Below, one piece after another: positions 1,605 to 6,203 of a stretch of 6,425 bases of DNA; position 1 is the stretch's first letter; each line of letters opens with the position of its first letter. A model generated the notes under the pieces. It saw only the letters and a program-made list of their open reading frames with translations, did no database searches and had not been told where the DNA came from. Origin of the DNA: a virus (taxonomy: Duplodnaviria > Heunggongvirae > Uroviricota > Caudoviricetes); the IMG/VR virus record IMGVR_UViG_2703718859_000020; one strand, written 5' to 3'. A program made the translations under genes and the position numbers.

Positions 1605-1793
1605 GTGTTAAGCACTGATCGGTTTATACGTGAAAAAGAATGCGAAAAGCTAACAGGCCTTAGCCGCTCATGCCGCTACCGCCTGGAAAAGGCCGGACAA
1701 TTCCCATCACGTCGTAAACTTGGCGGGCGTTCTGTTGGCTGGTCTTTATCTGAGGTTTTGGCCTGGAAGGATAGCTGCAAGGCAGTTCACTAA
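1605..1793 (+). CDS. alpA: AlpA-family (phage_AlpA / MerR-like HTH) transcriptional regulator, 62 aa
   Basis: GTG start at 1605 preceded by a strong SD (GAAAGGGGG, 1592-1600). The protein (RFIREKECEKLTGLSRSCRYRLEKAGQFPSRRKLGGRSVGWSLSEVLAW) matches the AlpA pattern of an HTH followed by a conserved G-W...E-W segment. Position immediately after a P4-type int is typical. Confidence 0.85.
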   Translation: MLSTDRFIREKECEKLTGLSRSCRYRLEKAGQFPSRRKLGGRSVGWSLSEVLAWKDSCKAVH

Positions 1794-1857: not shown

Positions 1858-1973
1858 GAATAAACGCCATAATACTGAGGTATAACCATGATGAAATATA
1901 CGCCCGTACAGGGGCGGGGATTCGTTCGCCCTGGTGAATCTGAAAAGCCATGCTATAGGGTATTTTCAGGCAT

Positions 1974-2003
1974 AAAAAAAGCGGTCCCGATATGGAACCG
2001 CCT
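1974..2003 (-). terminator. Rho-independent terminator for the minus-strand cassette transcripts
   Basis: Stem GCGGTCCC (1981-1988) / GGAACCGC (1995-2002), 7 of 8 bp paired, loop GATATG. On the minus strand it is followed by a run of 7 U (plus-strand A-run 1974-1980). Located 66 nt downstream of the cassette B second gene. Confidence 0.55.
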
Positions 2004-2069
2004 TTCTGAACAATTAACCCGCTGCGCCGTATGTGTCAACAATCATAAGCCCGAACATGATAACCGTGA

Positions 2070-2273
2070 TCAGGCTGGTGGGCAATTACCTTGCTTGTTG
2101 GGGCCGTATTGTGCTGCCATTTTCATCCGTTCAGAACGTGAATATTTTTTTAGAAACTCATCAAGGACAAAAGCGCATGGAGCGAATCTTTCTGATTCAT
2201 GCTCGAGCGCCATATTTTCGTGCTCTCTGTTCGTTTTTTGCGATGGTGTATTGGTTGATTCTTTATTGGTCAT
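2070..2273 (-). CDS. Small protein of unrecognised family, 67 aa (cassette B, gene 2)
   Basis: ATG at 2271-2273, stop at 2070. Paralogous to the 2787-3014 ORF: shared MTN start and motif F-x-L-[DE]-[DE]-F-x-x-K-Y-x-R (FVLDEFLKKYSRS vs FALEDFVDKYPRR), with the same 57-nt spacing from the upstream RHH gene. Weak SD. Confidence 0.45.
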   Translation of the reverse strand: MTNKESTNTPSQKTNREHENMALEHESERFAPCAFVLDEFLKKYSRSERMKMAAQYGPNKQGNCPPA

Positions 2274-2330
2274 TGTGTGTACCTGTAAAGCAATGCGCCG
2301 TAGTACCTCACGCCACGGCGCTGATAGTAA

Positions 2331-2510
2331 TTATTCTGATTCTTTGGCCTTGCGGCGCTGGCGGCGTTTGATCTCGCCTTTTGCTGCCGTAACTAGAAAT
2401 CCGGCGGTACTTTCGCCAGGTTCTTTAAGTTGCTCAATATCGGTCATTACCTCATGCGGGATTCTGACCGTTGTCATTTGTGATTTTGCGTTCTTTGCAC
2501 CTGTTGCCAT
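2331..2510 (-). CDS. Ribbon-helix-helix (CopG/Arc/MetJ-like) DNA-binding protein, 59 aa (cassette B)
   Basis: ATG at 2508-2510 with SD AGGAG 8 nt upstream. Sequence MATGAKNAKSQMTTVRIPHEVMTDIEQLKEPGESTAGFLVTAAKGEIKRRQRRKAKESE shows the RHH pattern: N-terminal beta-strand (TTVRIPHEV), helix A, a G-E-S-T turn, helix B, and a basic tail. The six-frame track extends this ORF to 2735, but the internal ATG with the SD is the supported start. Confidence 0.7.
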   Translation of the reverse strand: MATGAKNAKSQMTTVRIPHEVMTDIEQLKEPGESTAGFLVTAAKGEIKRRQRRKAKESE

Positions 2511-2530
2511 TTCTGGTTCTCCTGATAATC

Positions 2531-2623
2531 GGTGTATTTCAGTATACGCAAAAAAAAAGATAAAAAAAGTCTTGCGGTGTATTTCACCTGAATGTAGATT
2601 TAAAAATGAAGGTGAAATACACC
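2531..2623 (-). promoter_or_regulatory. Cassette B promoter with three copies of operator motif GGTGTATTTCACC
   Basis: Minus-strand -10 TATACT (plus 2541-2546) about 31 nt upstream of the start codon; the -35 is poor (T-rich). Motif copies at 2531-2542, 2576-2588 and, inverted, 2611-2623; the last two form a perfect 13-bp inverted repeat with a 22-bp spacer. Confidence 0.5.
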
Positions 2624-2634
2624 CAAAACAACAA

Positions 2635-2678
2635 CGCCCCGCAGTGATGGGAACACATACGGGGCGTCTAACCAAACC
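2635..2678 (-). repeat. Conserved GC hairpin (CGCCCCG-N18-CGGGGCG) followed by TCTAACCAA, upstream of the cassette B promoter
   Basis: Read directly; a homologous element lies upstream of the cassette A promoter (3385-3427). On the minus strand the hairpin is followed by a T-rich tract (TTGTTGTTTT). Confidence 0.4.
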
Positions 2679-2747
2679 ATTAATTGAGGTAACGATTATG
2701 GCTATAAAAGAGCATAGCTTACTCTTTATACACACACAAACGCCCCG

Positions 2748-2767
2748 GAAACGGAATAATCCGTTTC
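2748..2767 (-). terminator. Weak hairpin after cassette A gene 2 (GAAACGGA-ATAA-TCCGTTTC)
   Basis: 8-bp stem with a 4-nt loop, 20 nt downstream of the stop at 2787. Only a weak T-rich tract follows on the minus strand. Confidence 0.3.
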
Positions 2768-2786
2768 ATAGTTCGGTTTTGTGCAC

Positions 2787-3014
2787 TCATCCTGGCGGTC
2801 GGTTTTTGCCGGATTTAAGCCGCCGTGGGTATTTATCGACAAAATCTTCAAGGGCAAATTTTTCTGGTGGCACTAAGCGCGGCGCTGGTGGTGGTATTTT
2901 TGTTCTGGTTAGTTCTTCCTCAACTCTGGCGCAGGCTTCTGACTGCCTTTGCCGGATGATTTCATCATCTTGCGTTTGCGTGTCTTGTATTGGTGATAGT
3001 GTGTTGTTGGTCAT
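2787..3014 (-). CDS. Small protein of unrecognised family, 75 aa (cassette A, gene 2)
   Basis: ATG at 3012-3014, 57 nt after the RHH stop; paralog of the 2070-2273 ORF (same motif and position). Weak SD (AGGG). Confidence 0.45.
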   Translation of the reverse strand: MTNNTLSPIQDTQTQDDEIIRQRQSEACARVEEELTRTKIPPPAPRLVPPEKFALEDFVDKYPRRLKSGKNRPPG

Positions 3015-3071
3015 GATACTGCCCTGTAAAGCAATGCGCCGTAGTACCTCACACCACGGCGCTGATAGTGA

Positions 3072-3251
3072 TTATTCTGATTCTTTGGCCTTGCGACGCT
3101 GGCGGTATTCAACTTCCCGCTTTAATGCAGCTGTAACAAACTGCCCTGTACTTTCGCCGGGCATTTTTACCGCCTCAACATTGTTCATAACTTCATGTGG
3201 AACCCTTGCCGCAACTGTTTGTGATTTTGCGTTTACTGCTTTTGTCGCCAT
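3072..3251 (-). CDS. Ribbon-helix-helix DNA-binding protein, 59 aa (cassette A)
   Basis: ATG at 3249-3251 with SD GAGGGG 8 nt upstream. MATKAVNAKSQTVAARVPHEVMNNVEAVKMPGESTGQFVTAALKREVEYRQRRKAKESE is 36/59 identical to the cassette B RHH protein and has the same length and RHH pattern. Confidence 0.7.
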   Translation of the reverse strand: MATKAVNAKSQTVAARVPHEVMNNVEAVKMPGESTGQFVTAALKREVEYRQRRKAKESE

Positions 3252-3280
3252 GTTGAGCACCCCTCATAAAAAACAAATGC

Positions 3281-3353
3281 AGTATGCAGGAAAAAAAACA
3301 AGTGTTCAACACTTGACGTGTTTAACACCTCGATTTAAATTGGTGTTCAACAC
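3281..3353 (-). promoter_or_regulatory. Cassette A sigma70-like promoter overlapped by three palindromic operators GTGTT-N-AACAC
   Basis: Minus-strand -35 TTGAAC (plus 3304-3309), 17-bp spacer, -10 CATACT (plus 3281-3286), about 30 nt upstream of the start codon. 11-bp palindromes at 3302-3312, 3318-3328 and 3343-3353; the first overlaps the -35. Confidence 0.5.
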
Positions 3354-3384
3354 CTTATTTAGGCAAGGTGTAGAAACGACGAAA

Positions 3385-3427
3385 CCCCGCACTGTAGGAG
3401 CAGTAACGGGGCTTCTAACCAACAACG
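3385..3427 (-). repeat. Conserved GC hairpin (CCCCG-N17-CGGGG) followed by TCTAACCAA, upstream of the cassette A promoter
   Basis: Homolog of the 2635-2678 element, in the same position relative to the promoter. Confidence 0.4.
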
Positions 3428-3634
3428 TAAACGAGGAGCCGTTATGGTTGCCGTAAATCATATACCACACCTTGTACACACACAAACGGCCTTTGTGTGG
3501 CGTTTTCTGGCACTGAGTGCCGGAGAATCTCAAATAATCCACGTAACCGCCTGGACGGAACGCGAAGCACGTAACCGTTGCCCGTCAGGTTGTGTTGCTG
3601 TATTCGCCGCCCGTATTCGCCAGGGGGTAGGCTT

Positions 3635-4318: not shown

Positions 4319-4618
4319 ATGAAAAAGAAAATTTCTGGCTTAACTGCTAGTGGCAACACTCACCCTAAATTTACGCGCGGCGATATTTACCGCGACCAGT
4401 ACGGCGGCACGGTAACGATTAAAGGTGTAGAAGAGCGACGCATTACCTACCGCCGTGAAGGCTACGAATATGACTGCGTGATGCCTGTTTATCAGTTCCG
4501 GCGTGATTTTTCTCTGGTACAGACCGCGCCGCATAACGTGCCCACCAGCAGGGAGAAAGCACGCGCCAATATTCAGAAGATGAAAAACATGATTAACGGA
4601 TTCAGGGGCAAGAAATGA
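4319..4618 (+). CDS. Hypothetical protein, 99 aa
   Basis: ORF whose stop overlaps the rep start (ATGA at 4615-4618), suggesting translational coupling. Weak SD. No family recognised. Confidence 0.45.
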   Translation: MKKKISGLTASGNTHPKFTRGDIYRDQYGGTVTIKGVEERRITYRREGYEYDCVMPVYQFRRDFSLVQTAPHNVPTSREKARANIQKMKNMINGFRGKK

Positions 4619-6012
4619 AAAGCGCACCGAACTTAAAAAAACAGCCTTACGACAAGATGACCGAAGTCATCATTTTTGCGGGTAGTGATGCGTGGGCACA
4701 TGCGAAACAGTGGCAGGAACAGGACGGGCGACTGGCTGGCGATAATGTGCCTCCCATTGTGCTGGCTGATGATCAACTGGATGAACTGGCAGACCTGAGA
4801 ATCATCGACGAGGGGCGCTATTGTGTCCGGCTGTACAAGGCAGGCCACATCAGGCCATCAAATATTAATGCCATTGCGCACAAGCTGGCGGCGGCGGGCG
4901 TAACTGATGCGAATTATTACCCCGAAGGGATACACAGCCAGAAGCGGGAGAACTGGCGCGAATATCTGGAACGGGAGCGGGGGAAAAAGCCAGGGGAAGA
5001 ACACCACCAGCGAAAAACCACGCTACCGATGAGCGTTGGATCTGCCGGATACGACACGCAATTAGATTACGTGGTAAAGGGGATTATTCCGGCATCGTCG
5101 CTTTGCAGCATATACGGGGCGAGCGGTTCCTATAAATCATTCCTTGCGGGTTCGTGGGCGTGTCACGTTTCCACGGGCCGCCAGTGGGGAGGCCGCAGGG
5201 TGGCGCATGGCGCTGTTCTCTATGTGGTTGGTGAAGGCGGTATCGGCGTTCCGCGTCGTGTAAAAGCCTGGGAGGTTGTGCACGGTGAGCAGGTGAAAAA
5301 TCTGTATCTGGTAAACCGTCCCATCTTTCCGGCGGTCCCGCTTGATGTTGATGAAATGGTTATCGCTGCCCGTCAGGTGGAGCGGGAAACGGGTAAACCT
5401 GTACGCATGATTATTCTGGATACGCTGGCGCGTTGCTTTGGTGGGAATGATGAAAATGATTCCCGTGATATGGGGGCGTTTATCCGTGGTTGTGACGAAC
5501 TGAAACGACGCACAGGGGCCACGGTGCTGGTGGTTCACCATTCCGGCAAGGATGAGACGAAAGGCGCGCGCGGTTCCAGTGCATTTCGTGCATCACTGGA
5601 TGCTGAATACCGGATACGCAGGGAGGACGCAGGAAGCGAAGCGCTGGTTATCTCATGCACCAAAATGAAGGACGCGGAGGAACTCAAAGAGGCTGCCTAT
5701 GATTTGCGGGTGGTGGAGCTTTTTACCGACGCTGACGGGGAGTTAATCACGTCGCTGGTGGTGGTGGATAAGCCGCGCCCTCCCGTTGAACTGGAGCGCA
5801 TCGAGGAGGCAGGGAACAAGACGGAAAACCATACCGCGCTATGGGGGTGCATCCGTTCACGCACACAGAACGGCGACAAGTGCACGATCCCGCTGTTACG
5901 TGATGACATGAAAAAACTGGGGTATGAAATGAAAAACTTCCGGCGCTGGCTGTACAAGCTGGAAAAAGATGGGGTTATTCGTATCGATGGGGATGATGTA
6001 GCGCCGCTATAA
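4615..6012 (+). CDS. Replication-associated RecA-fold P-loop ATPase (RepA / AAA_25-like helicase or initiator), 465 aa
   Basis: SD CAGGGG 6 nt upstream. Walker A-like SIYGASGSYKSF (residues ~165-176, deviant with Tyr where the second Gly is expected), Walker B VRMIILDTLAR (~263-273), and VLVVHHSGKD typical of RepA/DnaB-like proteins. N-terminal ~150-aa domain and a basic C-terminal ~70-aa region consistent with a DNA-binding winged helix. Confidence 0.8.
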   Translation: MKSAPNLKKQPYDKMTEVIIFAGSDAWAHAKQWQEQDGRLAGDNVPPIVLADDQLDELADLRIIDEGRYCVRLYKAGHIRPSNINAIAHKLAAAGVTDANYYPEGIHSQKRENWREYLERERGKKPGEEHHQRKTTLPMSVGSAGYDTQLDYVVKGIIPASSLCSIYGASGSYKSFLAGSWACHVSTGRQWGGRRVAHGAVLYVVGEGGIGVPRRVKAWEVVHGEQVKNLYLVNRPIFPAVPLDVDEMVIAARQVERETGKPVRMIILDTLARCFGGNDENDSRDMGAFIRGCDELKRRTGATVLVVHHSGKDETKGARGSSAFRASLDAEYRIRREDAGSEALVISCTKMKDAEELKEAAYDLRVVELFTDADGELITSLVVVDKPRPPVELERIEEAGNKTENHTALWGCIRSRTQNGDKCTIPLLRDDMKKLGYEMKNFRRWLYKLEKDGVIRIDGDDVAPL

Positions 6013-6203
6013 AAGTGAGGAGCAAAAGCGAGGGGGGTAGAAAGAGGGCCAAAATTAGCCTGCTCTCCCTCACTTTTCGACCTGTATACATCCTCAAAAG
6101 TGAGGGGTAAAAAAATACTTATGAAACACACACATAGAAAAACCAAAAATCCCAACTGCGACGAAGTGAGACGCTTGAAAAAGTGAGGCAAAAAAGTGAG
6201 AGG
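6011..6203. repeat. Iteron cluster: candidate replication origin immediately 3' of rep
   Basis: Copies of AAAGTGAGG or close variants at 6012-6020, 6025-6033 (AAAGCGAGG), 6097-6105, 6163-6171 (GAAGTGAGA), 6180-6188 and 6194-6202, plus an inverted copy CTCCCTCACTTTT at 6065-6077. The two sets flank an AT-rich segment (about 6106-6160). Confidence 0.6.

Follow-up and report, generated by a model that had tools for sequence, protein, structure and literature searches.

The ribbon-helix-helix (RHH) proteins Arc and Mnt are repressors of the immI region of phage P22, and lambdoid phages carry heteroimmune immunity regions. In satellite P4, the long open reading frame (ORF) eta is coupled to vis, a homologue of alpA, the early promoter lies inside this frame and kil is its nested short form; when eta is translated, late transcription can proceed across the immunity region (PMC10111431). 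In Gram-negative phage-inducible chromosomal islands (PICIs), AlpA is a known activator, the global repressor is described as "unclear" and the logic of induction as "a mystery" (PMC6092414). Capsid-forming PICIs (cf-PICIs) have int, alpA and a replication gene in one direction, followed by their own capsid, portal, protease and terminase genes. The variable gene found after alpA in these elements is said to be "of unknown function" (2025 cf-PICI study). Here we describe a stretch of 6,425 nucleotides from a virus of the Caudoviricetes (IMG/VR virus record IMGVR_UViG_2703718859_000020), called the window below, in which two tandem modules, A and B, each carry a minus-strand gene of the YlcI/YnfO family and a set of near-palindromic repeats. 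A comparison of homologous modules supports the reading that the type of repeat follows the N-terminal strand of the YlcI protein, and makes YlcI/YnfO a candidate for the repressor not yet found in Gram-negative satellites. The genes on which the argument rests are the following.

1605-1793, plus strand: alpA, AlpA-family regulator, single copy (Pfam Phage_AlpA, E 5e-18)
2331-2510, minus strand: ylcI-B, 59-amino-acid (aa) RHH-like protein of the YlcI/YnfO family, strand QMTTV (NCBIfam NF041551, E 3.8e-17)
3072-3251, minus strand: ylcI-A, 59-aa RHH-like protein of the YlcI/YnfO family, strand QTVAA
3444-3638, plus strand: icd-like gene, a P4 kil homologue, heading the rightward operon (NCBIfam phage_ICD_like, E 5e-18)
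4615-6012: RepA helicase, last gene of the rightward icd-like operon

The plus-strand products of the window are a tyrosine integrase, AlpA, the Icd-like protein, small ORFs, a DUF4222 protein and the RepA/AAA_25 helicase. The window is 95-99.9% identical to chromosomal islands of E. coli, and one of these (locus L001, 95% identical) runs on into genes for capsid, protease, portal, connector/head-tail, HNH and small terminase (terS) proteins. The cf-PICI layout is thus found with int, alpA and RepA in the window itself and the capsid and packaging genes in this relative. We consider it likely that the window is the regulatory arm of a cf-PICI, arranged as the left operon of satellite P4, and we give the same weight to our explanation as a whole. 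The putative operators and promoters of the two modules are listed here.

3302-3312: operator O3'-A, GTGTTCAACAC, over the -35 of the ylcI-A promoter
3318-3328: operator O2-A, GTGTTTAACAC, in the spacer of the rightward promoter P_R
3342-3354: operator O1-A, GGTGTTCAACACC, directly after the P_R -10; its 11-bp core, 3343-3353, is GTGTTCAACAC
2531-2543: operator O3-B, GGTGTATTTCAGT, an 11/13 match to GGTGTATTTCACC, overlapping the -10 of the ylcI-B promoter
2576-2588, plus orientation: operator O2-B, exact GGTGTATTTCACC, in the module B promoter spacer
2611-2623, minus orientation: operator O1-B, exact inverted GGTGTATTTCACC, just downstream of the rightward -10
3313-3341, plus strand: promoter P_R, sigma-70-like, TTGACG-17 nt-TAAATT, facing the icd-like and replication operon (consensus scan)
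3281-3309, minus strand: ylcI-A promoter-like site, -35 TTGAAC (3304-3309) and -10 CATACT (3281-3286), read from the sequence
2541-2546, minus strand: -10 of the ylcI-B promoter, TATACT
2572-2600, plus strand: module B rightward promoter-like site, TTGCGG-17 nt-TAGATT, with a weakened -35, read from the sequence

The preliminary description of this locus had placed three palindromes in module A, at 3302-3312, 3318-3328 and 3343-3353, and these were confirmed as three copies of GTGTTNAACAC. When one mismatch is allowed, this motif matches four times in the window against 0.24 expected, and none of 200 dinucleotide-preserving shuffles reached four. The fourth match (GTGTTAAGCAC, 1605-1615, one mismatch) overlaps the GTG start codon of alpA; it is probably there by chance, as elements whose operators belong to other classes carry the same alpA sequence. 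Module B had likewise been credited with three copies of its own motif, of which the two at 2576-2588 and 2611-2623 are exact and the one at 2531 matches at only 11/13 positions. The B-type motif is found three times in the window (0.17 expected; three reached in 0/200 such shuffles). That the two motifs differ was also part of the preliminary description, and this holds for the centre of the site: both fit a 13-bp frame, GGTG-N5-CACC, and they differ at 4/5 central base pairs and nowhere else. When the two 741-bp units are aligned, their middle operators fall at homologous positions (TTGCGGTGTATTTCACCT against TTGACGTGTTTAACACCT), and module B contains no A-type site and module A no B-type site.

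YlcI-A and YlcI-B both belong to NF041551, with 59.7 and 62.1 bits against a curated cut-off of 30 bits, and are 61% identical over 59 residues. Their topology is strand-helix-helix, with structural similarity to solved RHH proteins, and the inter-helix turn typical of this superfamily (G-x-S/T/N) is present as G32-E33-S34, invariant in 37 homologues. By sequence, no Pfam RHH family was matched at E <=0.1, and PDB phmmer and hmmsearch found no RHH protein. An hhalign comparison with Arc gave a weak match (probability 5%) that placed residues 12, 14 and 16 of YlcI on Q9, N11 and R13, the base-contacting residues of Arc. The strings QTVAARVPHEV and QMTTVRIPHEV had been read correctly for the strand region, and the turn (PGEST) and tail (RRQRRKAKESE) are identical in the two proteins as had been stated; helix B, which had been counted among the conserved parts, differs between them, as does helix A. 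Palindromic sites of 11-13 bp are consistent with binding by a YlcI dimer. Our literature search found no functional study of YlcI or YnfO.

To compare operators and proteins we collected about 110 homologous modules from one genome per species, IMG/VR and E. coli records, covering many enterobacterial genera. In nearly all of them a near-palindrome of 11-13 bp occurs three times ahead of the ylcI ATG, at positions near -102, -77 and -32. The sites fall into 14 operator clusters, and each variant of the strand (residues 11-15), with the N-terminal arm included, goes with one cluster. Examples of these pairs are given below.

Strand QT[VIL]AA: operator GTGTTGAACAC
Strand QMTTV: operator GGTGTATTTCACC
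Strand KKLEA or RKLEA: operator GTGTCAGCCAC
Strand KKIDV: operator GTGTCAGACAC
Strand KRFDV or KRIDA: operator GTGT[CG]GGACAC
Strand QSVTA: operator GTGTAAGACAC
Strand QSLKS or QALKA: operator GTGTGGCCCAC
Strand QQKTA: operator GTGCAAGTCAC
Strand QK[LV]Q[AT]: operator GTGGACTCCAC
Strand QK[LI]QA with a different N-terminal arm: operator CTGGATTCCAG
Strand QKMSA: operator CTGGCACCCAG

Individual pairs were found again in distant hosts and in other flanking contexts. KKLEA with GTGTCAGCCAC was seen in Xenorhabdus species and IMG/VR contigs, QT[VIL]AA with GTGTTGAACAC in E. coli, Edwardsiella, Pectobacterium and Kosakonia, and QMTTV with GGTGTATTTCACC also in an island that has a single module and an intact icd-like gene (L116). 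The mutual information between residue and operator type exceeded the shuffle expectation by 1.09 bits at residue 14, 0.73 bits at residue 12 and 0.72 bits at residue 5. Positions 27, 31 and 58, in the helices and tail, are just as variable and carried only about 0.1-0.2 bits. The match between motif divergence and the beta-strand, which had been proposed from modules A and B alone, thus extends to 14 operator types.

We also asked which promoter the operators are likely to serve. The -35 of P_R, TTGACG, keeps its position in 67/81 distinct upstream regions, amid operators that vary, and the -10 of this conserved rightward promoter has one of the three operators on either side. For this reason the icd-like and replication operon is probably the main target of YlcI, with autoregulation as a second function. 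The -10 of the ylcI promoter is conserved as TATACT or CATACT, and O3 follows it in most classes and in module B. The earlier proposal of autoregulatory circuits therefore stands as far as the third operator lies on the ylcI promoter, and falls short where the probable main target is concerned.

Module B differs from module A in its state of preservation. Its rightward side looks partly decayed: the icd-like gene is truncated, with a remnant of its 5' end left at the right edge of the module, and the -35 is TTGCGG, a sequence seen only in distal B modules (TTGACG or TTGAAG elsewhere).

2698-2745, plus strand: remnant of the icd-like 5' end, MAIKEHSLLFIHTQT..., right edge of the distal module (module alignment)

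These features, together with the rarity of the tandem, whose junction is present in about 13/5426 complete E. coli genomes at >=98% coverage, would suit the view that module B is a functionless, decaying remnant of a past recombination and that module A is the sole working circuit. We regard this as unlikely, because module B retains an intact ylcI-B with its -10 and the full set of three operators, four other elements carry the B unit at 99.6-100% identity, one of them with a different proximal module, and a long frame antisense to the modules (described below) remains open through module B.

The same comparison bears on how the tandem arose. A-type and B-type modules are each found alone in other satellites. 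In the four other elements the near-identical distal unit comes with its junction and stands beside an A module in three and a QQKTA module in the fourth. Modules A and B differ throughout except in near-identical boundary segments. In E. coli 05-3629 the distal slot is occupied by an unrelated 59-aa RHH-like ORF (...PPFQFRLDPDL...; locus L002, 3299-3478, minus strand) with its own palindrome, ATGTGTATATACACAT, and this slot retains the hairpin and the truncated icd-like remnant of module B. Because A and B occur singly, near-identical B units stand beside different proximal modules and one distal slot holds an unrelated gene, recombination between heteroimmune satellites fits better than local duplication and divergence, and the duplication with specificity switching suggested earlier is not supported. 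The best-conserved stretch between the two units, 2263-2387 against 3004-3128, spans the ylcI tail, a 12-pair terminator-like hairpin and the start of a small ORF, and is probably a recombination boundary.

Alternatively, the two repressors might be non-orthogonal, each binding both operator sets appreciably, so that the tandem would form one dosage-reinforced circuit. The common GGTG-N5-CACC frame, with middle operators that are positionally homologous and differ in the centre only, points this way, and so does the invariance of N7, K9, S10 and R16 in both proteins. We nevertheless consider such cross-talk quite improbable. The central base pairs differ as described and neither module carries a site of the other type; moreover, across the 14 classes no site of a module changes without the other two, which implies selection for discrimination.

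A different kind of doubt is that the repeats are bound by another factor, such as AlpA, the Icd-like protein, the product of the small downstream ORF or a protein of the helper phage or host, while YlcI does something else. AlpA is indeed a DNA-binding activator of these elements (PMC6092414), and some PHROG families that contain Icd-like proteins are labelled "transcriptional repressor". Each of the encoded candidates was rejected as the determinant of specificity. A single alpA serves two motif types in the window, and an identical AlpA (WP_000953271.1) accompanies different motifs elsewhere; Icd-like proteins with the same N-termini occur with four or five operator classes; the same type of 67-aa downstream ORF occurs with five; and perfect sites are kept in module B without an intact icd-like gene. 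We give this explanation very little credence.

The small ORFs that follow the ylcI genes, and the hairpins around them, are as follows.

2070-2273, minus strand: small ORF of 67 aa that follows ylcI-B and may not be a real gene (PHROG 21027, unknown function)
2787-3014, minus strand: small ORF of 75 aa downstream of ylcI-A, shared among operator classes
2295-2321, minus strand: terminator-like hairpin just after ylcI-B, inside the near-identical inter-module segment (homology to 3036-3062)
3036-3062, minus strand: terminator-like hairpin just after ylcI-A, 12-pair stem
2634-2667, minus strand: conserved GC-rich hairpin, module B copy
3381-3415, minus strand: conserved hairpin, module A copy

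The 75-aa ORF had no family match in profile searches. The sole PADLOC match was of the 67-aa ORF to Cas8g and fell below threshold (E 6e-4, 17.6 bits against the TIGR04106 cut-off of 125 bits); the other five ORFs gave none. The strong conservation of the 2263-2387/3004-3128 stretch suggests that these ORFs are poorly expressed or are not real genes. That each cassette is a type II toxin-antitoxin-like pair, with an RHH antitoxin and a small downstream toxin autoregulated through the palindromes and unrelated to control of satellite replication, is hardly credible, since neither ORF matches a toxin or defence family, identity between the two is only 31%, many loci lack them or have a different ORF, a terminator-like hairpin precedes them, and two of the three operators lie on the rightward promoter, not on that of ylcI.

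Compensatory changes were seen in 12/15 pairs of the conserved hairpin, which separates the operators from the start of the icd-like gene. G.U pairs occur in its leftward strand (25) and never in the rightward one, and a T-rich tail follows in the leftward direction. For these reasons the hairpin probably serves to terminate leftward transcripts and is less likely to be a leader element of the rightward one; as such a terminator it would isolate module B from its neighbour A in the tandem. We had also considered the hairpin as a homologue of the P4 CI RNA and dropped this, because an Rfam scan of the whole window at E <=1 gave two chance-level matches and neither C4 nor isrK, so that no immunity RNA of the CI/C4 type was found. 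Closer to the icd-like gene, a small hairpin at 3424-3440 (and 2678-2694) shows the Shine-Dalgarno sequence in its loop and covaries across loci, and an invariant leader motif, TCTAACCA, stands just upstream of it. In P4 this motif is not above chance.

The setting of the modules was then compared with P4, on account of the long open frame that runs opposite to them.

1888-3456, plus strand: 522-codon open frame, running antisense through the two modules and their promoter regions, an analogue of P4 eta (ORF list)

This frame opens shortly past alpA and closes 13 nt inside the icd-like gene. Among non-redundant related loci, the equivalent antisense frame is stop-free for >=600 nt in 97/110, usually beginning at or near the alpA stop, and in 76 of these 97 it is in the reading frame of the icd-like gene and ends at its stop. 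In the window, the long ORF spans two modules and is out of frame with the icd-like gene, so that the nested arrangement in a single frame is not seen here. In 21 class representatives the antisense frame contained 48 stops, compared with 296 and 336 for the two remaining frames, and its openness was reproduced in <=0.05% of shuffles or synonymous recodings (P(no stop) <=0.0005). Consistent with this analogy, the phage_ICD_like hidden Markov model also matches P4 eta/kil, with E 1e-20 for their C-terminus. The P4-type order, with an Icd-like/Kil gene after a long open frame that starts from the alpA/vis stop and an early promoter inside that frame, is therefore found in this group.

The interpretation that we favour as likely is that the five variable base pairs in the centre of GGTG-N5-CACC are recognised by strand residues 12 and 14 of a YlcI dimer, while the invariant R16 and an arm made of N7, K9 and S10, which like the outer GTG/CAC bases do not vary among the homologues, hold those outer bases. 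The operators bracketing the P_R -10 would shut off the icd-replication operon, and the third operator, on the ylcI promoter, would provide autoregulation. Module A (QTVAA, GTGTTGAACAC) would be the working switch of the element. Module B (QMTTV, GGTGTATTTCACC) would be a second immunity unit of other specificity, recombined in from a heteroimmune satellite; having lost a working rightward side, it would most likely add a second repressor specificity, for example as immunity against B-type satellites. The bridging ORF would carry opposite-strand immunity modules instead of the RNA immunity of P4. No helper-encoded antirepressor is known here. Induction may bypass the repressor: helper-activated transcription of alpA would read through the translated bridging ORF into the replication operon, and this AlpA-driven read-through, antisense to ylcI, may also interfere with ylcI expression. 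Such a bypass would agree with the role of AlpA as an activator and with the report that overexpression of alpA alone suffices for cf-PICI reproduction (2025 cf-PICI study). In its widest form, the proposal is that the master repressors still missing for Gram-negative PICIs and cf-PICIs are YlcI/YnfO proteins, with at least 14 specificities set mainly by residues 12 and 14, an eta-like read-through override, and a tandem that confers two-type immunity and mediates competition between satellites; this we put forward as tentative, though a serious possibility.

Several points speak against repression by YlcI as outlined. The outer GTG/CAC bases are common to both operator sets, so that cross-binding could occur. 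Module A has no operator at its own ylcI -10, its third site lying over the -35 instead. If alpA alone drives reproduction of cf-PICIs, any repression is not dominant over AlpA. The covariation is also partly a matter of linkage, because exchange involves the entire module, a block of some 350 bp with the conserved ylcI tail at one end and the leader hairpin at the other. That three sites change in concert, and that the information is confined to certain residues, indicates a signal beyond linkage, although this is not proof of contact.

Other features of the window and its relatives were noted. Just past the RepA helicase gene, at 6012-6201, six copies of AAAGTGAGG with 0-1 mismatch lie in both orientations (six reached in 0/200 shuffles); these are probably replication-origin iterons. 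A perfect 9-bp stem, CCGATACCG...CGGTATCGG, is found at 1843-1866, between alpA and the start of the long ORF. Between int and alpA, 1381-1462 is an AT-rich terminator-like hairpin, and its weak Rfam match to the Brucella small RNA BSnc120 (27 bits against a gathering score of 114) is most likely due to chance. Searches of the phage collection gave no match for the window by megablast or for YlcI by tblastn, and one match for the Icd-like query. E. coli EDL933 was searched by coordinates for the prototype island EcCIEDL933, and only a lambdoid prophage with a YlcI/YnfO gene was found. In this prophage (L118) the gene, at 28982-29167, is divergent from, and 41 bp away from, HNH endonuclease and terminase genes. 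The family thus also occurs beside packaging genes in lambdoid prophages, a setting unlike the PICI switch.

If YlcI is the repressor missing from the Gram-negative PICIs, an uncharacterised family of E. coli K-12 prophages (YlcI, YnfO) would gain a function, and the "immunity types" of satellites would become predictable from sequence. The natural strand-operator pairs, at least 14 of them, would offer a ready set for the study and engineering of RHH specificity. The RNA immunity of P4 and the protein immunity of PICIs would then be two solutions within one conserved architecture.

Compared with Arc and Mnt of P22, to which no sequence-family relationship of YlcI is detectable, the system described here has three sites of 11-13 bp per module, a satellite as its setting, at least 14 natural specificity classes and a repressor gene that is antisense inside a long ORF. 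With lambdoid immunity regions it shares the exchange of repressor and operators as a mosaic block bounded by conserved sequence; it differs in having two blocks in tandem, an RHH rather than a helix-turn-helix protein, and a satellite as the host element. The Stl/Rpr repressors of Gram-positive PICIs (SaPIs, the Staphylococcus aureus pathogenicity islands) are similar in that the repressor gene is divergent from the excision-replication operon and exists in many allelic specificities (PMC6092414). Their fold and size differ from those of the 59-aa RHH protein YlcI, and induction of Gram-negative PICIs goes via AlpA. The closest likeness in architecture is to the left operon of P4, with which the order of alpA/vis, a long ORF from near its stop, an internal early promoter, kil/Icd-like and replication genes is shared, as is the kil/Icd-like short form in the frame of the long ORF in the majority of related loci counted above. 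In P4 the immunity factor is the CI RNA acting with seqA and seqC, and the internal promoter is PLE (PMC10111431), whereas in the PICI the factor would be YlcI, a putative protein repressor encoded on the opposite strand and acting through DNA operators.

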